DNA of 64,000 nucleotides from an uncultured Alphaproteobacteria bacterium (GCA_902546975.1 CACCLU010000004.1:89134-153133); one strand, 5' to 3'. Positions 7,862 to 62,823 are shown, numbered from the stretch's first letter. Notes: generated by a model not told the origin, from the letters alone. Numbers and translations: made by a program.

Positions 7862-8907
7862 CACTTTTCACCTAAGTAAATATTTTTTAAAACTTTTGTA
7901 GTTTCATAATATGTAGATTGTTTTTTTAGCATATATCTTATACCAAGTAATGCCATTCCTTGGGATTCAATGAAATCTCCGTCTATTTGGTAATTATCAA
8001 TTAAAGAAATGTTATCAAAATACTCAGTGAAAATTTTTTGTAAAGTTAGATTTTTTCTTCCACCGCCCATTAAAATAATTTTGAATTCTGATTGCAAGGA
8101 AATCAAAGAATTAATAGCAAATGGAATAACTTCAAGTAATGTATAAATTAAATCATTTAAATTTTTATCTTTAATAGAATTATCTATATATTTATGAAAA
8201 TAATTTCTGTCTAAAGATTTAGGAAGTTTTTCTAAAAAATACTTGTCACTTATTATTCTGTTAAATAGAACATCAATTTTTTGACCATTATTAGATAATG
8301 AACCATCAACATCAAATCTTTCTTTAGTTTTTTCAAAAATTAAATCATTAACGACGGCATTACCAAAAGAACTATCACCAGCAGTAATTTTTTGGTTATC
8401 AATAACAGTTATATTAGTAACACCTCCTATATTGACAAAAATAACCTTTTTTAAATCTAGTTGATTAGCTAAGACTCGGTGGAATTCTGGCATTATTGGT
8501 GCCCCATTACCACCATTTAACAAATCATTTTTTCTAAAGTTACATATAACAGGAGAGTTAGTGTTAAATCTAATACTCTTATCAAATAGTTGTATTGAAA
8601 TTTTTGTTTTTTGATCGTGGTATATTGTTTGTCCATGCATTGCAATTAAGTCTATTTCGAAATTATTTTTTTTAATAAAATTGTTTATAGAATCCTTATA
8701 TTCTTGATTTAGCTGGTTTATAACTTTGGTATCGTCTAGGTATCCTTTCAAAATTACATTACGTAATTTTAATTGCAGGTCATCACTATATGGAATGAAT
8801 TCATTTGATATATCAGTGACATATGAAACTCCATCAGATTTGACCAAGCTACAATCAATACCATCTAAAGAAGTACCAGACATGCAACCGAGGGCGATAT
8901 ATTCCAT
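7858..8907 (-). CDS. anmK: Anhydro-N-acetylmuramic acid kinase
   Basis: GCMSGTSLDGID, HGQTIYH, GGNGAP, NIGGVTNIT. Confidence 0.92.
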   Translation of the reverse strand: MEYIALGCMSGTSLDGIDCSLVKSDGVSYVTDISNEFIPYSDDLQLKLRNVILKGYLDDTKVINQLNQEYKDSINNFIKKNNFEIDLIAMHGQTIYHDQKTKISIQLFDKSIRFNTNSPVICNFRKNDLLNGGNGAPIMPEFHRVLANQLDLKKVIFVNIGGVTNITVIDNQKITAGDSSFGNAVVNDLIFEKTKERFDVDGSLSNNGQKIDVLFNRIISDKYFLEKLPKSLDRNYFHKYIDNSIKDKNLNDLIYTLLEVIPFAINSLISLQSEFKIILMGGGRKNLTLQKIFTEYFDNISLIDNYQIDGDFIESQGMALLGIRYMLKKQSTYYETTKVLKNIYLGEKC

Positions 8908-8940
8908 TTGATATCTATAAAATTATGTTAATTATTATAT

Positions 8941-10137
8941 ATGATAGATTATATACAGTTATTTAAAGATAGAAATCTATTCAATCAATGCACTAATGAA
9001 ATAGAACTTAATAATTTACTCAATAAGAAAAAAATTATTTTTTATATTGGATTTGATGCAACTGCTGATGCATTACATGCCGGAAGTCTTGTTCAATTAA
9101 GAGCTATTAAGACTCTAATCAAACATGGTCATCAGGCTATAGTACTATTAGGTGGAGGCACAACAAAAATTGGTGACCCCTCTGGCAAAGATGCCTCAAG
9201 ACAAATTTTAACTTACGAAACAATCCAAAAAAATATTGAGAATTTTAAAAGAATATTTGAACATTATTTTAGAGATTTGAAAGAAAATATAAAATTTATA
9301 AATAATGATCAATGGCTTGATAAATTAAATTACATAGAGTTATTGAGAGATTTGGGAAGTCAAGTTTCAATCAATCGTATGCTTACATTTGAGAGTGTTA
9401 AAGAGAGACTTAAAAGAGAGCAATCATTATCATTTTTAGAATTTAATTACATGATACTCCAAAGTTATGATTTTCTTCACTTAAATAAACATGAAAATTG
9501 TGAGTTGCAAATTGGCGGCTCGGATCAATGGGGTAATATCGTTTTGGGTATGGAAATTATATCAAAAATAAACAAAAAAGATGCTTTTGGTCTGACTACA
9601 CCTCTTTTAACTACCTCTACAGGTAAGAAGATGGGCAAGACCGAGCAAGGCGCTGTCTGGATAGATCAAAATAAATACAGCTCTTACGATTTCTATCAGT
9701 ATTGGAGAAATGTGGATGATAATGATGTGGAAAAACTATTACTTATTTTTAGTGATTTAGACAAAGAAGAAATAAAAATATTAATTAAAGAAGATATCAA
9801 TAATGCGAAAAAAAAATTAGCATATTTAGTGACAACAGATTGTCATTCAGAAAGCTCAGCACATGAGGCTGAAGAAAAAGCAAGATCAATTTTTGAAAAT
9901 AATTCTTTCGATAATATTGATGAAATTAACTTTAAAATAGACTCAAAACTCATAGATACACTAACATCCAATAGTACGGTCTCATCAAAATCTGAAGCAA
10001 AAAGGCTAATCGAGGGTGGTGGTATAAAGATTGACGACGAGCAAATCAACGATATTAATCTTACTATTGATAAGTCTTATAACGGAAAAATACTCAAGAT
10101 TGGTAAAAAAAAATATTTTAAAATTATCGTTAAGTAA
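8941..10137 (+). CDS. tyrS: Tyrosine--tRNA ligase
   Basis: YIGFDATADALHAGS, QIGGSDQWGNI, KMGKT, C-terminal S4 domain. Confidence 0.97.
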   Translation: MIDYIQLFKDRNLFNQCTNEIELNNLLNKKKIIFYIGFDATADALHAGSLVQLRAIKTLIKHGHQAIVLLGGGTTKIGDPSGKDASRQILTYETIQKNIENFKRIFEHYFRDLKENIKFINNDQWLDKLNYIELLRDLGSQVSINRMLTFESVKERLKREQSLSFLEFNYMILQSYDFLHLNKHENCELQIGGSDQWGNIVLGMEIISKINKKDAFGLTTPLLTTSTGKKMGKTEQGAVWIDQNKYSSYDFYQYWRNVDDNDVEKLLLIFSDLDKEEIKILIKEDINNAKKKLAYLVTTDCHSESSAHEAEEKARSIFENNSFDNIDEINFKIDSKLIDTLTSNSTVSSKSEAKRLIEGGGIKIDDEQINDINLTIDKSYNGKILKIGKKKYFKIIVK

Positions 10138-11146
10138 CCAATATATCTTTTATAGCATCATTAACAAAATTTAAATCATCTTTGGACTTACCTTCTCCAG
10201 CATAGTGACCGTAGCTTGAAGGAATGATTCGTAATTCACCATTTTTAATATTTTTTAATTCAATTTCATTATCCTCTGGGGGGAAGTATAAATCATTTTT
10301 ACCTGGCATTAAAATACATCGCGCAGTAATAGAGTTAAGAGCTTTATCAAATTGATTATTAAATTTATTATTGTTGCTAATGTCGTGCTCTTGCCAAGTT
10401 CTTATCATCGCTAATAAATCATTTGCATCCTTACGATAATAAATTCTATTCCAAAGTTTATCCAAAACTTCTTTTGCATCTTTGTAACCATCATCGATAT
10501 ATTTTTTTTCCCTAAACCAGTCTTGCCCATGCGCCCATCCAGCCCATACTCTTGCCATTGTTGTTTTTCCATTTTGAGGTTGTTTTTCATAAATTCCAGA
10601 ATTCCAGTTTGGATCTGAAGTCAAAGCAGCATATACACCCTCTAAAAATACATATGTATGCTCTGTGGTTTTCGCATGACCACACATTGAAATCATATTT
10701 TCTACCATGTCTGGAAAATATGACGCCCACTGAAAAGCTTGTTGTCCTCCCATTGACCAGCCTATTACTAATTTAATTTTTTCTATGTTAAATATTTCTT
10801 TTAGAAGTGTGTATTGTGCTTGCACGTTATCATATATTGTAATTAAGGGAAAATTAGGTCCATTAAAGGGTTTTTCTGTATTACTGGGTGAGGATGAAAC
10901 ACCATTACAAAACATATTTGGAATAATGATGAAATATTTATCTGGATCTATGGGAAAATTATTACCAATCAGATATCCTTGCTCAAGATGTGTACCAGCA
11001 TACCTAGTAGGAAATAAAATTACATTTGATTTGTCAGAATTTAGTTTCCCAAATGCTAAATAATTTAATTGTAAATCTATTATGTCACCTGATTTTAATT
11101 TGAAATTATTTAGTTGGTATTTATGTAGTTCCTCTTTACTAATCAA
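10130..11146 (-). CDS. Homoserine O-acetyltransferase-like (MetX-fold) alpha/beta hydrolase; substrate unknown
   Basis: IIIPNMFCNGVSSSPSN, GWSMGGQQAFQWA nucleophile elbow, DLYFPP Asp, YGHYAG His. Confidence 0.7.
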   Translation of the reverse strand: MISKEELHKYQLNNFKLKSGDIIDLQLNYLAFGKLNSDKSNVILFPTRYAGTHLEQGYLIGNNFPIDPDKYFIIIPNMFCNGVSSSPSNTEKPFNGPNFPLITIYDNVQAQYTLLKEIFNIEKIKLVIGWSMGGQQAFQWASYFPDMVENMISMCGHAKTTEHTYVFLEGVYAALTSDPNWNSGIYEKQPQNGKTTMARVWAGWAHGQDWFREKKYIDDGYKDAKEVLDKLWNRIYYRKDANDLLAMIRTWQEHDISNNNKFNNQFDKALNSITARCILMPGKNDLYFPPEDNEIELKNIKNGELRIIPSSYGHYAGEGKSKDDLNFVNDAIKDILVT

Positions 11147-12544
11147 TTAAAATAACTTTAAATATTCTTTGATTTCCCAATCAGTTGTAGTTGTATGATA
11201 TCTAGACCACTCATCATATTTATATCCAATAAAATTGTTTATCATAGCCTCAGAAAAAACTTTTTTAGTTAATTTATCAGCAGCAAAAGCGTCTACTGCC
11301 TCTAATAAATTTCTTGGCAGTGTAGTAACCTCTTTTTTTTCTTTCTCGGTCAAATCATAAAGACTTTTATTAGTTGGTTTTGGGGGCTTCATTTTTTTGT
11401 CGATACCCTCTGTAACAGCTGCGGCTAATAAAGAAAAAGTTAAATAAGGATTTTGAGTTAAATCAGACGCCCTATTTTCTATACAATATCTATTTTGCGG
11501 TAGTCTTATCATAGCTGATCTATTATTACTGCCGTATGTCATGTGTGTAGGAGCCCATGTATGACGGCCACCATCAAGGCCCTCAACAGTAGGAACAAAT
11601 CCATTATATGAGTTAACAGTTGGGCACGCTAGAGCTGTAATCGCTGCTCCATGTTTTAAAATTCCAGCGACAGCATTGTAGGCTTTATCAGAGAAATTAT
11701 TCCCATTCTTATATATGTTATTATTTTTCTTTTTAATTGATGCCACACTATGATTGATGTGAGCGCCAGCTCTCCAATCACTAATAGTTGTCTTTGGCAT
11801 AAATGATACAAAATATCCATATTTTTTTGCAACTTCCTTTAGTAATACTCTTAAAAATACAAATCTATCAGCCATCCCTAGAATATCTGTGTAACCGAAA
11901 TCTAATTCATACTGGCCATATGCACCCTCAGCAACGACGTCATGGAGATCCCATTTCAAATCATTATTTAAAATATCTATTATTTCTTTTAAAAAATGCA
12001 TTCCATCTATTGAGTACTCTGAGTCATACCCAAAAGCTTGTCTTCTCAAATTTATAGGATCTCTATCAATTGCTTTAACTGGTTTGTCGCCCTCCCACTT
12101 CATTAAGAAAAATTCAGGTTCAATACCAACAAAAAATTTCAAGTCAGATTTAGCGCTTTCCTTTATTTGTTTTTTTAACGTCATTCTCGGGCAAACATCG
12201 TAAGGTTTGTCATTCCAATATAAATCTGCAAAAACCCATGCACATGTTTTATCCCATGGACATATAACAAGACTATCCAAATCTGGCACAGGGATTTGAT
12301 CATTATCTGCTGGGGTTAATTCTGGAACAAAGGAAACAGAATGAACAGCAAATTGAGGGCCTTTACCCATACAAAGATCCTCAAAATCAGATATAGGCAT
12401 AGGCTTAGTTTTTGGACTACCCAGAAAATCAATCCAATTAGAATAAATGTATTTTACTCCTTTTTTTTCTAAATCCTTTTTTATTTTTCTAACTTTTTTT
12501 ACATCAGGTAAGGCGTCTTTAAAATTTTCAAAATATTGACCCAA
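11147..12544 (-). CDS. Glutamine synthetase-like gamma-glutamyl-amine ligase (paralog 3)
   Basis: GIEPEF, GQYELDF, FMPK, HINHS, NNRSAMIRLP, IENRASD..NPY; TTG start with GGAGGAG Shine-Dalgarno; flap reads TWAP rather than EAP. Confidence 0.85.
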   Translation of the reverse strand: MGQYFENFKDALPDVKKVRKIKKDLEKKGVKYIYSNWIDFLGSPKTKPMPISDFEDLCMGKGPQFAVHSVSFVPELTPADNDQIPVPDLDSLVICPWDKTCAWVFADLYWNDKPYDVCPRMTLKKQIKESAKSDLKFFVGIEPEFFLMKWEGDKPVKAIDRDPINLRRQAFGYDSEYSIDGMHFLKEIIDILNNDLKWDLHDVVAEGAYGQYELDFGYTDILGMADRFVFLRVLLKEVAKKYGYFVSFMPKTTISDWRAGAHINHSVASIKKKNNNIYKNGNNFSDKAYNAVAGILKHGAAITALACPTVNSYNGFVPTVEGLDGGRHTWAPTHMTYGSNNRSAMIRLPQNRYCIENRASDLTQNPYLTFSLLAAAVTEGIDKKMKPPKPTNKSLYDLTEKEKKEVTTLPRNLLEAVDAFAADKLTKKVFSEAMINNFIGYKYDEWSRYHTTTTDWEIKEYLKLF

Positions 12545-12620
12545 GTTAGTCTCCTCCTAAAATTTAAATCTTATCGAATTGAAATTATATGACCATAATA
12601 TAAAATTACTACTTCAAATT

Positions 12621-12866
12621 ATGAATATTGATTACTTTAAAAAATCATGGATTAAATTTTACAAAAGAGGCTTTATGATGGGATTCTTTGTTTTAACTTT
12701 TATACTCACTGTTGATCAGTTTTTACAGACACCACTTTTTTTTAGTAAGATTACAGATATAAAAGTATTTATGTTCATTATATCCACTATTTTTTTTGCA
12801 GCAGTGTTTTGTGGTCTTTTAGCAGTGATTTTTTTATCACTAATTATGATCGCTACTAAAAAATAA
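12621..12866 (+). CDS. Small hypothetical membrane protein (ATG start preferred over the upstream TTG at 12579)
   Basis: Fills an otherwise empty gap; two hydrophobic stretches; no recognisable family. Confidence 0.4.
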   Translation: MNIDYFKKSWIKFYKRGFMMGFFVLTFILTVDQFLQTPLFFSKITDIKVFMFIISTIFFAAVFCGLLAVIFLSLIMIATKK

Positions 12867-13607
12867 TTATAATTTAATATTTTCTAACCAATTCAGTAAT
12901 TCAAGTTCTCTGTTAAATTGATCTTCATTTTCAAAACTTTGTAATTTATTTAATAATGCTTCAAATTCATTTTCACTCATAATCTTTAAATAATTTCTTT
13001 TCCAATAACTCATTAATTTACCGATATAGTTGTATGGTAGTTCTGGATGATATTGAGTACAAAATATGTTTTGTTTTTTATGACATATAGATTGAATAGA
13101 ATGATTATTCTCAGAAATTATGTCAAAGTCCTTGGGAAGAGTTTCTAAACTATCGTAATGATGACCAGGGGCAGTAAATAAATTTTTTTTATTTTTATAA
13201 ACAAAATGATTTTTTATAATTTTTATTTTTTCAGAATATCCAAACTCTGGACTCATAGAACTTGATATTTTTCCTCCAAATGCTGTTACAACCACTTGAA
13301 GACCCCAACAACTTCCCCAAATTGGTCTTTCTAGAGTTGCTATTCTATCAAATATCTTCAACTGATTTTTATTGTGATCATTGTCATCATAAATATTACC
13401 GAGACCTCCGGTCCATAAAAAGGCATCGTAATCTTCAAAACTAAATTTATTTACATCCTCAATGTAAGGTTTATAAACCGAGATATTTGAGAGGGGATTT
13501 TGCTTTTTAATAATTTCTTCAAAAAAACTATATTGATAAGAAGAATTTGATTTAACATGTTCATTATCATGGTTTTGATCCATGCCACTGATAATTAGTA
13601 AATTCAA
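12867..13607 (-). CDS. Class I glutamine amidotransferase-like protein (putative gamma-glutamyl-amide hydrolase)
   Basis: WTGG, nucleophile GSCWGLQ, QYHPE; no synthase domain. Confidence 0.85.
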   Translation of the reverse strand: MNLLIISGMDQNHDNEHVKSNSSYQYSFFEEIIKKQNPLSNISVYKPYIEDVNKFSFEDYDAFLWTGGLGNIYDDNDHNKNQLKIFDRIATLERPIWGSCWGLQVVVTAFGGKISSSMSPEFGYSEKIKIIKNHFVYKNKKNLFTAPGHHYDSLETLPKDFDIISENNHSIQSICHKKQNIFCTQYHPELPYNYIGKLMSYWKRNYLKIMSENEFEALLNKLQSFENEDQFNRELELLNWLENIKL

Positions 13608-13616
13608 GTTTTCTGT

Positions 13617-13787
13617 TTATTTATGTCTAGAGAATTTCTTTTTTAAAATCAATTCGTTATCTTTTTTTGCAATTTTTCTTAAAATAAAAATCATAAATGC
13701 AATCCAAATAACTGCTGCTATTAGTTTATTTTCAGCTATTGATTGAATGAGATTTTGAAAAAAGAGATTTGAAGTGTTGTAATCCAT
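13617..13787 (-). CDS. Small single-TM protein (56 aa), not in the ORF track
   Basis: Hand translation MDYNTSNLFFQNLIQSIAENKLIAAVIWIAFMIFILRKIAKKDNELILKKKFSRHK; stop 10 nt before the GATase start. Confidence 0.5.
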   Translation of the reverse strand: MDYNTSNLFFQNLIQSIAENKLIAAVIWIAFMIFILRKIAKKDNELILKKKFSRHK

Positions 13788-13793
13788 TTATTA

Positions 13794-13819
13794 TAAGGCG
13801 GGGATAATTCCCCGCCTTA
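13794..13819. terminator. Perfect 11-bp hairpin after the amt operon
   Basis: TAAGGCGGGGA-taat-TCCCCGCCTTA, GC-rich in an AT-rich background. Confidence 0.7.
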
Positions 13820-13828
13820 AATTATACA

Positions 13829-14002
13829 TTATTTTGTTTTTTTTGCAGTATCAGACTCGTGTCTTGCTGTTGCCATAGTGACTAGCACGCATAGAGCAAT
13901 AACAAAAAGGGTCCAAAATATCAGTGCACCTTCACTGTTGGCATAAGTGAAATAAGCGTCCACACCTTCCCAACTATTTTCAGGTCCTGGAAATGTATTC
14001 AT
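13829..14002 (-). CDS. Small membrane protein (57 aa) co-transcribed with amt, not in the ORF track
   Basis: MNTFPGPENSWEGVDAYFTYANSEGALIFWTLFVIALCVLVTMATARHESDTAKKTK; strong SD AAGGAAGGAG; starts 21 nt after the amt stop. Confidence 0.75.
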   Translation of the reverse strand: MNTFPGPENSWEGVDAYFTYANSEGALIFWTLFVIALCVLVTMATARHESDTAKKTK

Positions 14003-14022
14003 ATTTTCTCCTTCCTTATATG

Positions 14023-15300
14023 TTACTGATATGCCTTGAGATTTAACTCAGCGCTATCAATACCTGCTTTTTGAACTGCATCTGGTACACGTAACCAATT
14101 CATCATTTTCATAATGAATGATAAACCATAACCAGGCACAAATCCTACTAAGAACATGACTATACATCCAACTAACTGTCCACCAAAACTTGTTGGAGGA
14201 ATATCACCAGATGCTGGATAGCCTGAAGCAAATAATCCCATTGCAATCACACCCCATATACCGGCAACTCCATGAACAGATATAGCTCCTACTGGATCAT
14301 CAATCTTGAAAACACTGTGTAACCAATTATTCGCAGGAATAATTATAACACCGCCAACAAAACCGAGAACAAAGGCTAATCCTGGATACCAAACATCAAG
14401 CCCAGACGCACAGGAGAAAATACCTGCAAGACCACCTGACATCATCCAGAATGGGTTACCTTTACTCATCCAGAATGCACCAATCATTCCTCCACCTAGA
14501 CCCATGAGGGTATTGAAAGCGAAAGATGATAATGTTGCTGGAGCACCGTAAATGTTTATCCATCCACCAAACTCTGCACCTGCCCAGATTAAACAACCAC
14601 CGAGGAATCCGAAGAAACCAACAATAATCATTAAAAGACCAATAAATGAGAAACGAAGATCATGACCCTCAATCTCATTCGCAGAACCGTCAGCATTGTA
14701 TTTACCAACTCTAGGTCCTAAGTTTAAGACAACTCCGAAAGCAAACCAACCTGCTACCATGTGAACAACACCAGCTGCTCCAACATCATGATATCCGAAT
14801 TGTGTTACTAACCAACCATCAGGATGCCAGCCCCATGAAGCGGCTAAGATCCATGCTACAGACCCTAAAACAACAGCCAAGAAAGTAAATGAGCTAATTC
14901 TTATTCTCTCAAGAACAGATCCTGAAAAAATAGATGCTGTAGTACAAGCAAATAATGTAAATGCTGCCCAGAAAACACCTGTGGCTTGGTCACTTAACAT
15001 TGGCCCCATAGATACATTCCATGGAGTACCATAACCGTCAAGTGCTATTGGAGTAAATCCCTCTGGAAATGCAAGATAAATATACCAACCAAATAACCAG
15101 AAGGTTGGTATCATAAACGCGAACGCTAAAAGGTTTTTTGTAGCTGAAGAGACCGCGTTTTTAAAACGAGACGATCCTACTTCATACATCAAGAAACCTA
15201 CGTGAATTGCAATCATTAACGCAGTACACCACCAATAGTAAGCTTCCATACTGACGTTCGCTTGCATCATCACGTACGATTCAAGTTCTTCAAGTGTCAT
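14023..15300 (-). CDS. amt: Amt-family ammonium/methylammonium transporter
   Basis: About 11 TM segments, twin His (GVVHMVAG, ISVHGVAG), DDPVGA, GxxER; SD AGGAGG. Confidence 0.92.
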   Translation of the reverse strand: MTLEELESYVMMQANVSMEAYYWWCTALMIAIHVGFLMYEVGSSRFKNAVSSATKNLLAFAFMIPTFWLFGWYIYLAFPEGFTPIALDGYGTPWNVSMGPMLSDQATGVFWAAFTLFACTTASIFSGSVLERIRISSFTFLAVVLGSVAWILAASWGWHPDGWLVTQFGYHDVGAAGVVHMVAGWFAFGVVLNLGPRVGKYNADGSANEIEGHDLRFSFIGLLMIIVGFFGFLGGCLIWAGAEFGGWINIYGAPATLSSFAFNTLMGLGGGMIGAFWMSKGNPFWMMSGGLAGIFSCASGLDVWYPGLAFVLGFVGGVIIIPANNWLHSVFKIDDPVGAISVHGVAGIWGVIAMGLFASGYPASGDIPPTSFGGQLVGCIVMFLVGFVPGYGLSFIMKMMNWLRVPDAVQKAGIDSAELNLKAYQ

Positions 15301-15533
15301 TATATGACCTCCTTATTAATTATTACTTTTTATTTTTATAAAAATAAAAAAGAACAGAGAAAAAATCTTTTTACAACTTTTTAGAATCTTCTTTCCTGTA
15401 CTTTTATGTATTTTACTTTTAATTGACTTAATTATAAAATCAAAAGAGATTAATTAATGTTAAAAAAAGATTGAGTTCAATTGTTTTTTTAATGGTATGC
15501 ACGATTTGCATATTTAGATAGAGGAGATATATA

Positions 15534-16841
15534 ATGGCAACTAACCTTCACCAATTTGCAAAAAAAAATGGTGTTAAATATTTTTTTGTAAGCTTTGTAG
15601 ATTTATTTGGAGTGCTCAGATCAAAGCTTGTACCTGCAACAGCTATAGATGAAATTCAATCTGAAGGTGCTGGATTTGCTGGTTTTGCAACATGGCTTGA
15701 TATGTCTCCAGCTGACTCTGATATGTTTGGTATGCCTGATGGTGATAGTGTTATCCAGCTTCCTTGGAATAAAGAAATAGCTTGGGTTGCCTCAGATTTG
15801 TTTATGGATGGTAAACCAGTAGAAACCTCACCCAGAATAGCCTTAAAAAGACAAATAGAAAAAGCAGCTAAAAAAAATCTTTATATGAAGTCAGGTGTTG
15901 AGTGTGAATTTTTTCTAGTTAATGAAGATGGGACTTCTTTATCAGATCAAAGGGATACGCAAGCAAAACCATGCTATGACTCCTCTGCATTAATGAGAAG
16001 ATATGATGTTATTACTGAAATATGTGACTCAATGATCTCACTTGGATGGAAACCTTACCAAAACGACCATGAGGATGCGAATGGTCAATTTGAAATGAAC
16101 TGGGATTTTTCAGATTGTTTAGTAACTGCAGATAGACATGCTTTTTTTAAATTCATGGTGAAATCTATTGCAGAAAAACATTCATTAAGGGCGACTTTCA
16201 TGCCCAAACCTTTCACAAATTTAACAGGCAATGGATGTCATTGTCATATTTCTATTTGGGATAAATCTGGCAAAAAAAATATGTTTTTAGATAAAAAAGA
16301 TGAATTAGGTTTATCCAAAACTGGTTACAATTTCTTAGGTGGAATAATGGAAAGTGCGGACAAAATGGCTGCTGTTTTTAATCCAACTGTAAACTCCTAT
16401 AAAAGAATTAACGGTAGTGTTACAACATCAGGTGCAACTTGGTCACCAAGTTCGATTACTTGGGCAGGTAACAACAGAACACACATGGTAAGAGTTCCTG
16501 GAGCAGGAAGATTTGAATTGAGATTAATGGATGGAGCTACAAATCCTTATTTACTTCAAGCAGGTATTTTACTTTTAGGATTGGACGGTTTAAATAATAA
16601 AAGAGACCCTGGTAAAAGATTAGATATTAATATGTACACAGAGGGTCACAAGGCTGGAAAAGTAAAGAAATTGCCATTAAATCTTCTTGATGCAATACGT
16701 GATTTTGATAAATCAAAAATCATTAGAGCAGGTTTTGGTGATGATTTAGTTAATAGCTATGTCAAACTAAAAAATCAAGATTGGGGTACTTTTAATAAAT
16801 ACCTTTCTAATTGGGAAAGAGAAACAACTCTAGATTGTTAA
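15534..16841 (+). CDS. gmaS: Gamma-glutamylmethylamide synthetase (GlnT/type III-annotated GS)
   Basis: GAGFAGFATWLDMSP, NDHEDANGQFEMNW, SGATWSP; methylamine-cluster context. Confidence 0.88.
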   Translation: MATNLHQFAKKNGVKYFFVSFVDLFGVLRSKLVPATAIDEIQSEGAGFAGFATWLDMSPADSDMFGMPDGDSVIQLPWNKEIAWVASDLFMDGKPVETSPRIALKRQIEKAAKKNLYMKSGVECEFFLVNEDGTSLSDQRDTQAKPCYDSSALMRRYDVITEICDSMISLGWKPYQNDHEDANGQFEMNWDFSDCLVTADRHAFFKFMVKSIAEKHSLRATFMPKPFTNLTGNGCHCHISIWDKSGKKNMFLDKKDELGLSKTGYNFLGGIMESADKMAAVFNPTVNSYKRINGSVTTSGATWSPSSITWAGNNRTHMVRVPGAGRFELRLMDGATNPYLLQAGILLLGLDGLNNKRDPGKRLDINMYTEGHKAGKVKKLPLNLLDAIRDFDKSKIIRAGFGDDLVNSYVKLKNQDWGTFNKYLSNWERETTLDC

Positions 16842-61136: not shown

Positions 61137-62009
61137 CTAAAATTGCTTATTGCTTCCAAGGACTATTTTTTTTCGAAGGACAGTTTCACGATAAAAAATA
61201 TATCCGACTGAAAATAAAATTAATGGACCTCCTAGTAGCACCTCTTTCGAGAGAAACTCACCAAAAAAAATATAACCGATGACAAATGCCCAAACAACAG
61301 AAGTGAAGTCTAAAGGAGCAAGAACAGAGGCTTCTGCTAATTGAAAAGATTTTGTAAGACAAAATTGAGCAGTAAACCCTAAAAAACCTGAAGCAATTAG
61401 AAAAACTAAGTCTAAATTATTTGGCCATATCCAATCATCACTATAGAAAAATAAACTTGAAACTGTTCCAAATAAAGTAAAGGCCCATACCGTTAAAATA
61501 TTATTATTAGTTATTAATATTTTTTTTAGAATTATCACTGCCATTGACAAAAATATACTAGCTAAAAGTGGTAAAACAGAATAATTGTTTAATAAATTCA
61601 CGTCCGGTTTCAAAATAATTACTACTCCAATAAAGCCAATAATAATTGCAATTATCCTCCTATATCCAATTTTTTCACCCAGAAAAAAAATTGATAATAT
61701 AGATATAAAAAAAACAGATGAAAAACTGATTGTTTGCATTTCGATCAGTGGAACATATCTAAGAGATATGAAGAAAAGACTCATTGCTGAAATTCCTACT
61801 AAACCTCTAAAAAAATGAAGTTTATAATTGTTAATAGAAGATATTTTTAGATTTAAATAATAAATGACAACTATCAATGGAATAAGAGCAAATAGATTTC
61901 TGAAAAAAACTACCTCAAATAATGGTAAGTTGTCGCCTGTTGCTTTTATACATACACTCATTAAAACAAAAAAAAGGACGGACAAAGACTTGTAGATAAA
62001 TGCTGACAT
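61137..62009 (-). CDS. EamA/DMT family transporter
   Basis: Ten TM segments, EVVFFRNLF, FLGEKIG, LAPLDF. Confidence 0.88.
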   Translation of the reverse strand: MSAFIYKSLSVLFFVLMSVCIKATGDNLPLFEVVFFRNLFALIPLIVVIYYLNLKISSINNYKLHFFRGLVGISAMSLFFISLRYVPLIEMQTISFSSVFFISILSIFFLGEKIGYRRIIAIIIGFIGVVIILKPDVNLLNNYSVLPLLASIFLSMAVIILKKILITNNNILTVWAFTLFGTVSSLFFYSDDWIWPNNLDLVFLIASGFLGFTAQFCLTKSFQLAEASVLAPLDFTSVVWAFVIGYIFFGEFLSKEVLLGGPLILFSVGYIFYRETVLRKKIVLGSNKQF

Positions 62010-62037: not shown

Positions 62038-62823
62038 ATGAATTTACTAATAGTTAATGGATATGACAAAAACGGATGGGGTAAACTAGCTAGATATGGA
62101 TTACAACCAATATGTGAGTTTTACAGAGACCAACTAAAAATAATTAATTCAAAAATAAAAACTACATTCATTTATCCATCTATGAACTTAGATGAAAATT
62201 ATGATGAAAGTTTCATCAAATCATTTACCGGCATTGTGTGGACAGGTTCAAGTCTCAATATTTATGATAATACAAGAGAAATTAAAAACCAAATTTCTCT
62301 CATGAAAAAGTTATCAAAGTTAAAGGTAAATATGTTTGGTAGTTGTTGGGGTATGCAACTTTTTACTGTTGCAAATGGTGGCGCAGTTAAAAAAAATCCT
62401 AAAGGTAGAGAAATTGGAATAGCCTATAATATAAGTATTAATAAATATGGTGCGCATCATCCAATGTACAAAGATAAGCCCCTGATATTTGATGCTTTTG
62501 CTTCTCATATTGACCATATATCCCAAAAGCCTAATAGATCTCATGTTCTGTCAGACAATCATTACTCAATTCAGTCTCTTATAAGCAATAAATTTTGGGG
62601 TACTCAATATCATCCTGAATTTAATTTTAAATACACAGGACAAATTTTAAATGCAAGAAAAAATATTTTACTTAAAGAAAAACTGTTTAGTAAAAATCAA
62701 ATACAAGAGTTAATCAAAGACTTTAAAAGACCTAATAACAAGAGTTATAGTCAATCTTTGTTAAAAGATACGTTAAGACACAAAGAATTAAAAAATTGGC
62801 TAAGTTATTTAAGAAAGAATTAA
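62038..62823 (+). CDS. Class I glutamine amidotransferase-like protein (paralog of 12867-13607)
   Basis: IVWTGSSL, GSCWGMQ, GREIG, QYHPE. Confidence 0.85.
   Translation: MNLLIVNGYDKNGWGKLARYGLQPICEFYRDQLKIINSKIKTTFIYPSMNLDENYDESFIKSFTGIVWTGSSLNIYDNTREIKNQISLMKKLSKLKVNMFGSCWGMQLFTVANGGAVKKNPKGREIGIAYNISINKYGAHHPMYKDKPLIFDAFASHIDHISQKPNRSHVLSDNHYSIQSLISNKFWGTQYHPEFNFKYTGQILNARKNILLKEKLFSKNQIQELIKDFKRPNNKSYSQSLLKDTLRHKELKNWLSYLRKN

Follow-up and report, generated by a model that had tools for sequence, protein, structure and literature searches.

Which of its neighbours does a glutamine synthetase (GS)-like ligase work with, and what might the partners make or break together? The question is raised by positions 10130 to 13787 of a 64,000-nucleotide stretch of DNA (GCA_902546975.1 CACCLU010000004.1:89134-153133), which in its full length we call the window. 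A first-pass annotation had read this segment as a glutamylation module, in which a GS-like ligase (LIG) is flanked by a class I glutamine amidotransferase (GATase) and by a MetX-fold hydrolase (Hle), and had inferred an uncharacterised amine pathway or a hydrolytic relief valve for gamma-glutamyl-(di)methylamide. The host is a HIMB59 (AEGEAN-169)-type alphaproteobacterium with a low-G+C genome of 1.29 Mb, and the segment forms one end of a methylated-amine island that includes amt, gmaS, two mgsABC-like sets, a sarcosine-oxidase-like set, tmm, tdm and a transporter for trimethylamine N-oxide (TMAO). As we describe below, the functional unit at this locus is a two-gene operon, LIG-Hle, and not a group of three genes. 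The features of the segment are as follows (ORF, open reading frame; TM, transmembrane segment).

10130-11146, minus strand: Hle, 338 amino acids, a MekB/CgHle-type (PRK07581) serine alpha/beta hydrolase
11147-12544, minus strand: LIG, 465 amino acids, a predicted GS-fold ATP-dependent carboxylate-amine ligase of its own family beside GmaS
12551-12589, minus strand: expression signals of LIG, comprising a ribosome-binding site (RBS) TAGGAGGAG at 12551-12559 and a -10 box TATAAT at 12584-12589
12621-12866, plus strand: o81, an 81-amino-acid, two-TM membrane protein, specific to the genus
12867-13607, minus strand: GAT-L (the GATase), 246 amino acids, a stand-alone class I glutamine amidotransferase fold
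13617-13787, minus strand: sm56, a 56-amino-acid, one-TM ORF upstream of the GATase

Pairing of LIG and Hle

The ORFs to which the first-pass annotation had drawn attention (Hle, LIG, the GATase and the small TM ORF) are all present at the coordinates above, and LIG and Hle abut with zero spacing, as had been claimed: the sequence reads ...TTATTT TAA TTG ATT AGT..., in which the TAA that ends LIG runs straight into TTG, the start codon of Hle. This zero spacing is kept in all relatives from the genus and in one SAR116 locus. LIG is preceded by a strong RBS and a perfect TATAAT, both located in the 76-bp spacer that separates it from the divergent o81.

We collected 80 genomic loci that encode LIG relatives, 44 of them from outside the HIMB59 order, and mapped the proteins of the window onto them; the order itself was sampled with an even set of 121 genomes, among them 61 of the window's genus and 60 of its sister family. 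About 34 of the 44 loci from outside the order have an Hle orthologue, 40-59% identical, downstream of LIG and in the same orientation, and the pair occurs in at least four phyla. Carriers of the adjacent pair include SAR116, SAR324, SUP05/Thioglobus, sponge symbionts, other Gammaproteobacteria, Kiloniellaceae and a verrucomicrobium, and exactly one Hle orthologue is present in 42/44 of these LIG genomes. Within the order sample, LIG was found in 51 genomes, Hle in 53 and both in 50, the three cases of Hle alone being at contig edges. By family, LIG is present in 45 genomes of the genus and absent from 16, and it is present in 6 genomes of the sister family and absent from 54. Both genes are under purifying selection, with ratios of nonsynonymous to synonymous divergence (dN/dS) of 0.03-0.06 for LIG and 0.06-0.12 for Hle; the corresponding values are 0.13-0.22 for the GATase, ~0.09 for o81 and 0.23-0.33 for sm56.

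Thus the idea of an uncharacterised but conserved ligase-hydrolase unit linked to amine metabolism is upheld across phyla. The comparison of gene neighbourhoods by which the first-pass annotation had proposed to judge its three-gene module gave a divided answer: LIG and Hle co-locate from genome to genome, and orthologues of the GATase do not beyond one genus. A full-text literature search found no published description of the LIG family or of the LIG-Hle pairing.

Two sets of loci depart from the common arrangement or extend it. In a single-cell genome (G142, locus L031), LIG and Hle are on the same contig but ~32 kb apart and do not abut, possibly through rearrangement or an assembly artefact. 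In SAR116 (loci L040 and L041, positions 8309-12409), the bare pair, with LIG 84-86% and Hle 57-59% identical to the proteins of the window, is divergent from a two-subunit Fe-S hydro-lyase of the fumarase/tartrate dehydratase type and convergent with a major facilitator superfamily transporter.

Properties of the ligase

LIG matches Gln-synt_C (E = 2.5e-82), and its best curated model is TIGR03105, the GmaS family, but its score there (358.7 bits) is well short of the cut-off (469.6), which the neighbouring GmaS, at 643.3, exceeds. By this measure LIG is not a GmaS. Its best matches in the PDB are GmaS structures (9QUR, 1.1e-63; 7CQL, 2e-57), yet it is only ~30% identical to GmaS and forms a separate clade (support 100/99). 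In the LIG tree, the sequences of the window's genus and of SAR116 share a long common stem (0.82 changes per site, 100/100), and the group is sister to SUP05. Since the SAR116 sequences nest inside the HIMB59 genus, a transfer is indicated.

We mapped LIG residues onto RhGmaS (7CQL) by a HMMER alignment together with an alignment of the seven GS-family proteins of the genome. LIG resembles GmaS (RhGmaS 7CQL-7CQX, PMC7948447; 9QUR; TIGR03105) in fold, in length, in its location in a methylated-amine island and in the residues for metal, ATP and acyl phosphate, which are kept as E142, E144, E206, E213, H262, E356, R358, R342 and R347. The amine-pocket residues Tyr147, Glu179, Glu186 and Lys30' of GmaS are likewise kept. 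Both proteins have lost the ammonium site of GS: Asp50' is Ala in LIG and the flap Glu (Glu327) is Trp, with QFAVHS in place of FDGSS and TWAP in place of the E-containing flap. Because LIG shares these 2 losses with GmaS, an organic amine, not ammonium, is the likely nucleophile, and in this respect the first-pass view of LIG as an amine-linked ligase was sound.

Other positions in the 2 pockets have changed relative to GmaS. At the amine site, Asp177, Gln175 and Asn188 of RhGmaS correspond to Val204, Asp202 and Asp215 of LIG. Asp177 is reported to be strictly conserved in GmaS and to deprotonate methylamine, and Arg312 and Glu186 are also reported as strictly conserved (PMC7948447); of this trio, LIG keeps Arg312 (as R342) and Glu186 (as E213) and has lost Asp177 (to Val204). 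In the acid pocket, Arg288 of RhGmaS (Arg321 of GS) is replaced by Gly315, and Gly231 (Gly265 of GS) by Arg258, which is preceded by Trp257. The canonical anchoring of L-glutamate was therefore not found in LIG, which reads NSYNG as against NSYKR, and DWRAGAH as against NG(S/N)G, whereas the six other GS-family proteins of the genome retain (K/R)R and G/A at the acid-site positions. The altered pocket residues (V204, D202, D215, W257-R258 and N314-G315) and the retained catalytic residues are all invariant across the LIG family (alignment A1).

This residue pattern suggests that LIG is a working ligase with an amine pocket unlike that of GmaS, and that it either binds its acid in a new way or uses an acid other than L-glutamate. 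Since LIG lacks both the Arg that binds the alpha-carboxylate and the catalytic Asp of GmaS, the term glutamylation, as applied to it, is uncertain. For annotation purposes, LIG should be named neither glutamine synthetase nor GmaS. A further difference from GmaS is that the latter has no fixed serine-hydrolase partner, while LIG is always paired with one.

It may be added that GS-family genes number seven in this genome of 1.29 Mb: one GlnA, one GmaS, LIG, a 489-amino-acid ligase of the second Mgs-like module, and three PuuA-like proteins. Three of the seven are within the window and the others are on contigs C3 (at 51 kb and 261 kb), C9 (3 kb) and C4 (81 kb). Amine ligation is unusually prominent for so small a genome.

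Properties of the hydrolase

Hle belongs to Abhydrolase_1 and passes the cut-off of PRK07581 (424.6 bits against 332), but falls below those of the MetX models TIGR01392 (147.8 against 500) and PRK00175 (136.4 against 331). Its best solved relatives, at ~40-45% identity over the full length, are 5E4Y (1.9e-55) and 5D6O (1.5e-50), and its triad Ser131-Asp285-His314 aligns with the triads of both. We take 5E4Y/5EFZ to be MekB of Pseudomonas veronii and 5D6O/5D7B to be CgHle of Corynebacterium glutamicum, esterases homologous to homoserine transacetylases; the entries are labelled 'homoserine O-acetyltransferase'. With these proteins Hle shares PTxY(A/S)GT, GNG(L/V)SSS and G(W/G)SMG(G/A)QQ, as well as the Ser-Asp-His order of the triad. 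The MetX motif is GHDAFL; the residue that follows the catalytic His of Hle is Tyr, not Asp. A weak signal for the Esterase-D family (PF00756, E = 4.7e-4) was also seen.

We conclude that Hle is a member of the MekB/CgHle esterase subfamily; its predicted activity is hydrolysis of short-chain esters, with no acetyl-CoA transferase activity expected. The MetX-fold label of the first-pass annotation agrees with the fold, which is that of the MetX superfamily. That Hle serves as the MetX of the cell can be dismissed on two counts, its scores and its absence from 13/16 LIG-negative genomes of the genus; in the remaining 3/16, the copies are at contig edges. It should not be named homoserine O-acetyltransferase. 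MekB and Hle also differ in their genetic partners: the gene for MekB follows that of a Baeyer-Villiger monooxygenase, whereas the partner of Hle is always a GS-like ligase.

The GATase and the variable cassette

The GATase has the hallmarks of its class: PF00117 at E = 6.4e-19 (68.8 bits against a cut-off of 22.8), Peptidase_C26 at E = 4.3e-06, and an intact triad Cys100-His187-Glu189 in the motifs GSC100WG and YH187PE189. By the first-pass annotation, a role as subunit of a known biosynthetic synthase would have counted against the module. We found no sign of this, as its equivalog scores for the partners of GuaA, TrpE, PabB and CarB type are far below the cut-offs and its neighbours include no synthase gene. 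A core GATase at 62038-62823 is its paralogue, 29% identical over the full length.

Class I GATase-type hydrolases fill the deglutamylation role in the Puu, Ipu and Atd/Tdn pathways, which act on putrescine (Puu), isopropylamine (Ipu) and aniline (Atd/Tdn). With AtdA2, PuuD and IpuF as precedents, the GATase, LIG and Hle might constitute a single glutamylate/deglutamylate system in this genus, in which the GATase, alone or with Hle, would hydrolyse a gamma-glutamyl amide made by LIG, whether to finish the pathway or, as a relief valve, to keep a toxic glutamine analogue from accumulating. The phyletic match within the genus speaks for such a system, an orthologue of the GATase being present in 44/45 LIG-positive and 0/16 LIG-negative genomes, with the genes always neighbours; so do the intact triad, the Peptidase_C26 signal and the purifying selection noted above. 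We nevertheless think it unlikely, for the following reasons.

First, the GATase is outside the LIG operon. The 322-bp gap between the two is filled by o81, a gene overlooked in the first-pass annotation, which is convergent with the GATase and divergent from LIG; a conserved gene on the opposite strand and separate expression signals thus intervene. Among 11 diverged genus loci examined, o81 retained its ORF, its start MNI(D/S)xFK and its motif DQxLxNPxF in 10/10 of those that yielded an ORF. A profile search with o81 found no homologue beyond the genus loci, on which ground we rejected it as a conserved member of a module, and it matches no Pfam family.

Second, LIG occurs elsewhere without the GATase. 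No orthologue was present in the six LIG-positive genomes of the sister family or in the 44 LIG loci from outside the order, where the sole match (in L066) was weak, half-length and 26% identical. Homologues of the GATase are nearly confined to the window's lineage, and the few distant ones have unrelated neighbours. These phyletic and neighbourhood data exclude the GATase as a conserved partner of LIG, and the three-gene module of the first-pass annotation, seen in one genus only, is not supported by them.

Third, the genes have had unlike histories. Between two genomes with nearly identical flanks, synonymous divergence (dS) was 0.07 for tyrS and 0.19 for gmaS, both flanking genes, and 0.13 for Hle, as against 0.79 for LIG, 1.06 for amt, 1.65 for o81 and 2.08 for the GATase. 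When 12545-15300 of the window was compared with L012 and L026, dS of the flanking genes was 0.05-0.19 and divergence peaked in the middle of the region; genomes that match at 98-100% in the flanks have GATase alleles with only 60% identity to each other. Such a pattern indicates that alleles have been replaced by recombination, with the GATase and o81 at the centre, and from the central peak we conclude that the region is a recombining, variable islet.

LIG-negative genomes of the genus have the same synteny (anmK, tyrS, small TM ORF, hairpin, small TM ORF, amt, gmaS, second Mgs-like module), without the GATase, o81, LIG and Hle, and with an amt 45% identical to that of the window (L099, L100 and L101). 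The site therefore has two alleles, one with the divergent amt and the four-gene cassette and the other with the 45%-identical amt and no cassette. By this comparison, the cassette of GATase, o81, LIG and Hle appears to have arrived as an accessory insert between the amt unit and tyrS. Co-occurrence of the GATase with LIG in one genus can then be explained by physical linkage in a single cassette. We regard the GATase as a local, lineage-specific addition, which may act as a second hydrolase but should not be counted as part of the LIG-Hle system; a relief valve for gamma-glutamyl-(di)methylamide, also put forward in the first-pass annotation, is uncertain.

The known modules of this general type (PuuA/PuuD, IpuC/IpuF, AtdA1/AtdA2, TdnQ/TdnT and NpaA1/NpaA2) resemble LIG-Hle in that a GS-like ligase is joined by a hydrolase. 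There the hydrolase is a class I GATase or C26 cysteine hydrolase, whereas the conserved partner of LIG is an alpha/beta serine esterase of the MetX superfamily, and no orthologue of GAT-L was co-inherited with LIG in the 44 loci from outside the order or the six sister-family genomes. LIG differs from the ligases of these modules also in its altered glutamate site. The pair would be the first case of a GS-like ligase whose fixed partner is a MetX-fold serine hydrolase.

Two observations concern the GATases of this genome and its relatives. In genome G148, the GATase contains in-frame stops, and so does Hle; as the assembly is apparently error-prone, we do not claim pseudogenisation of the GATase. 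The core GATase (plus strand, 261 amino acids) is a stand-alone class I protein encoded by almost every genome of the order, and its gene diverges from that of an EamA transporter at 61137-62009 (minus strand); a distant Parasphingorhabdus homologue is located directly after an EamA gene.

Genomic context in other lineages

Clustering, de novo, of the neighbours in the 44 loci from outside the order yielded several recurrent families. An Lrp/AsnC regulator gene directly precedes LIG and an EutQ-like cupin gene comes after Hle; the others are one or two Rieske oxygenases of the alpha-only kind, a GloA-like glyoxalase I and a D-2-hydroxyacid dehydrogenase. Occasional neighbours are a PhyH dioxygenase, or a class III aminotransferase together with an aldehyde dehydrogenase. 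For the Rieske proteins of SAR324, SUP05 and sponge symbionts, the best matches are CntA and Stc2 (PDB 6Y8J and 3VCA; 2.4e-30 to 6.5e-29), respectively a carnitine monooxygenase and a stachydrine demethylase; such proteins are not part of the feature in the window. The aniline and 1-naphthylamine (NpaA1/NpaA2) systems (PMC11335346) offer a precedent for the combination of a GS-like ligase, a Rieske oxygenase and a hydrolase. In those systems, as for LIG in most lineages, the oxygenase gene is beside that of the ligase; however, the aniline and naphthylamine oxygenases are two-subunit ring dioxygenases, while the Rieske partners of LIG are alpha-only and of the CntA/Stc2 quaternary-amine type. 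The window's genus and SAR116 keep the bare pair, with no adjoining Rieske or glyoxalase gene. The modifying enzyme that the first-pass scheme of glutamylation, modification and deglutamylation calls for is missing between tyrS and amt in the window, although a candidate is present in most other lineages.

The link to methylated amines is found in several lineages. In Thioglobus, an insertion of mgsABC and gmaS separates LIG from Hle, and in SAR324, LIG is located between mgsCBA and tdm with amt nearby. Among the 44 LIG genomes from outside the order, 35 encode GmaS above the curated cut-off and at least 32 a Tdm-type DUF1989-GcvT protein, whereas one encodes a Dmm/HODM alpha-like protein. For comparison, gmaS has been reported in ~23% of surface-ocean genomes (PMC7948447). 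In the sister family, Tdm is encoded in 4/6 LIG-positive and 8/54 LIG-negative genomes, and the LIG in question is of a different lineage, ~60% identical, and located 15-20 kb from tdm in three genomes. From the sister-family pattern and the genome counts together, we conclude that the methylated-amine association is robust, with more than one origin.

In some SAR324 genomes, mgsABC and LIG are present but no protein passes the GmaS cut-off. Taken with GmaS being the nearest characterised family and with amt and gmaS adjoining LIG in the island, this could mean that LIG is a second gamma-glutamylmethylamide (GMA) synthetase for monomethylamine, of other affinity or regulation and fed by the divergent Amt channel. 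We find this improbable, given Val for Asp177 and Gly for Arg288, a TIGR03105 score far below the cut-off, and no role left for Hle. The SAR324 case itself is open to another reading. In locus L052 (4969-7957 and 16813-17211), mgsC and mgsA are each split into two ORFs and a 132-amino-acid C-terminal GS-like fragment, probably of gmaS, is all that is left of that gene, while LIG, Rieske, Hle, amt and tdm are intact. This suggests that the N-methylglutamate (NMG) route is decaying beside a retained LIG module and not that LIG has replaced GmaS; the idea that LIG supplies GMA to Mgs in SAR324 lacking GmaS is correspondingly weakened.

Proposed role of the LIG-Hle pair

We tentatively favour the view, based on residue changes and gene context, that the pair captures a small cationic nitrogen compound tied to methylated-amine catabolism, LIG fixing the compound and Hle later cleaving the product. 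In the following scheme, we infer which acid and which amine are used, which of the 2 reactions comes first, and what Hle does. LIG would spend ATP to activate the acid as an acyl phosphate, from which the acyl group would be transferred to an organic amine, giving an amide on glutamate or a close analogue. Its substrate would not be ammonium and probably not monomethylamine; the best candidates would be dimethylamine, another C1-C2 amine, or hydroxylamine. Hle would later break an acyl bond of the conjugate or of its derivative. In most lineages, one or two CntA/Stc2-type Rieske oxygenases, the glyoxalase I, the cupin and the 2-hydroxyacid dehydrogenase would work around the pair.

Several observations weigh against this proposal. 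The acid may be something other than glutamate, given the changes at the glutamate site. Those relatives of Hle that have been characterised hydrolyse small esters and are not amidases. Homologues of the Rieske, cupin and Lrp proteins were absent from the window's genome (for Rieske, tblastn gave none at E <= 1e-5). The IclR operator by which the island's other methylated-amine operons can be recognised is missing from the LIG promoter; no copy of the IclR palindrome was found, within 3 mismatches, near LIG, the GATase or amt, and co-regulation with the IclR regulon of the island was rejected on this basis. Finally, 16/61 genomes of the genus are without LIG-Hle and yet keep tdm, gmaS and the second Mgs-like module, from which it follows that the pair is not needed for processing of TMAO-derived dimethylamine in this genus.

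Alternatively, LIG might activate some other cationic acid, for example N-methylglutamate, a betaine-type acid (such as gamma-butyrobetaine or carnitine) or D-glutamate, with Hle as an esterase that hydrolyses the substrate in an ester form. In that case the pair would be part of a pathway of quaternary-amine cleavage, with Rieske oxygenase, glyoxalase I and 2-hydroxyacid dehydrogenase, that is partly kept in the genus. Loss of the Arg321/Arg288 equivalent and the presence of Trp-Arg where Asn264-Gly265 bind the alpha-amino and alpha-carboxylate groups, at positions conserved in the other six GS-family proteins of the genome, are consistent with such an acid, as are the CntA- and Stc2-like partners, the frequent glyoxalase and dehydrogenase neighbours, and the esterase relatives of Hle. 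Possibly, however, the Arg has just been relocated (to Arg258) and still binds glutamate. The bare pair of the window's genus and SAR116 also fits poorly, and synthesis of an amide on a betaine at the expense of ATP has no known catabolic logic. We give this explanation a modest chance.

A different use of the glyoxalase would make the pair an accessory of aldehyde detoxification, in which LIG makes a gamma-glutamyl thiol cofactor (gamma-glutamyl-cysteamine or -cysteine) and Hle is a thioesterase, an analogue of glyoxalase II or of S-formyl-thiol hydrolase that completes an oxygenase-fed glyoxalase I or formaldehyde route. The frequency of glyoxalase I among the neighbours, the weak PF00756 signal of Hle and the large amount of formaldehyde that such islands generate are in keeping with this. 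The argument is purely inferential, though, genes for cofactor synthesis are rare in catabolic islands, and LIG-negative strains of the genus manage without the pair; we consider it very improbable.

Returning to capture of an amine by LIG and Hle, one specific form of it concerns a known gap. SAR11, marine Gammaproteobacteria and Deltaproteobacteria have been noted as lacking dmmDABC, and most of the abundant degraders (SAR11, SUP05 and SAR324) as having Tmm, Tdm and GmaS but no dimethylamine monooxygenase (PMC5520151). Conceivably, though in our judgement quite unlikely, LIG-Hle, with the Rieske protein where present, is the missing dimethylamine step of such bacterioplankton (SAR324, SUP05, HIMB59 and SAR11-type). 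Dimethylamine released by Tdm would be converted by LIG to a conjugate of the gamma-glutamyl-dimethylamide type and demethylated while bound; the demethylated conjugate would enter the GMA/NMG route or end as glutamine, and Hle would handle a labile acyl or carbinolamide intermediate. In a more radical variant, LIG would O-acylate an N-oxygenated methylamine made by Tmm, and the esterase-fold partner would complete a redox-free demethylation.

Methylated amines are a large flux of nitrogen and carbon in the surface ocean and precursors of marine aerosols, and the absence of a dimethylamine monooxygenase from abundant degraders is a recognised gap in the pathway; the same islands hold LIG-Hle in at least four phyla. 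Under strong purifying selection and with both ligase pockets rebuilt, LIG-Hle is a concrete candidate for new amine chemistry.

Transcription units and the amt side of the locus

Upstream of sm56, the following features complete the region.

13797-13816, minus strand: GC-rich hairpin, GGCGGGGA-TAAT-TCCCCGCC, between sm57 and sm56
13829-14002, minus strand: sm57, a 57-amino-acid microprotein ORF of the amt unit
14023-15300, minus strand: amt*, a divergent Amt-family channel (PF00909, E = 5.6e-62)
15534-16841, divergent from amt*: the true GmaS (TIGR03105, 643.3 bits)

The hairpin, with a 7-bp all-GC stem, divides amt and the 57-amino-acid ORF from the 56-amino-acid ORF and the GATase, and is likely to be a terminator or attenuator of the amt-sm57 transcript. 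A similar hairpin is present in the LIG-negative allele. Three features that the first-pass annotation had overlooked, the GC hairpin, the conserved gene on the opposite strand and the RBS and -10 box of LIG itself, led us to reject a single operon reaching from amt to Hle. Transcription is more likely to be divided into the units amt-sm57, sm56-GATase, o81 (opposite strand) and LIG-Hle. sm56 is conserved in the genus loci, and LIG-negative genomes have an analogous small TM ORF after the hairpin; it would thus appear to belong with the amt unit and not with LIG.

The product of amt* is below both NCBIfam Amt cut-offs, and a second Amt of the genome, on contig C1, is 32% identical to it. In the divergent region between amt and gmaS, the palindrome TATGCACGATTTGCATA at 15496-15512, ~20 bp upstream of the gmaS RBS, may be a site for a nitrogen regulator; it differs from the IclR operator of the island.

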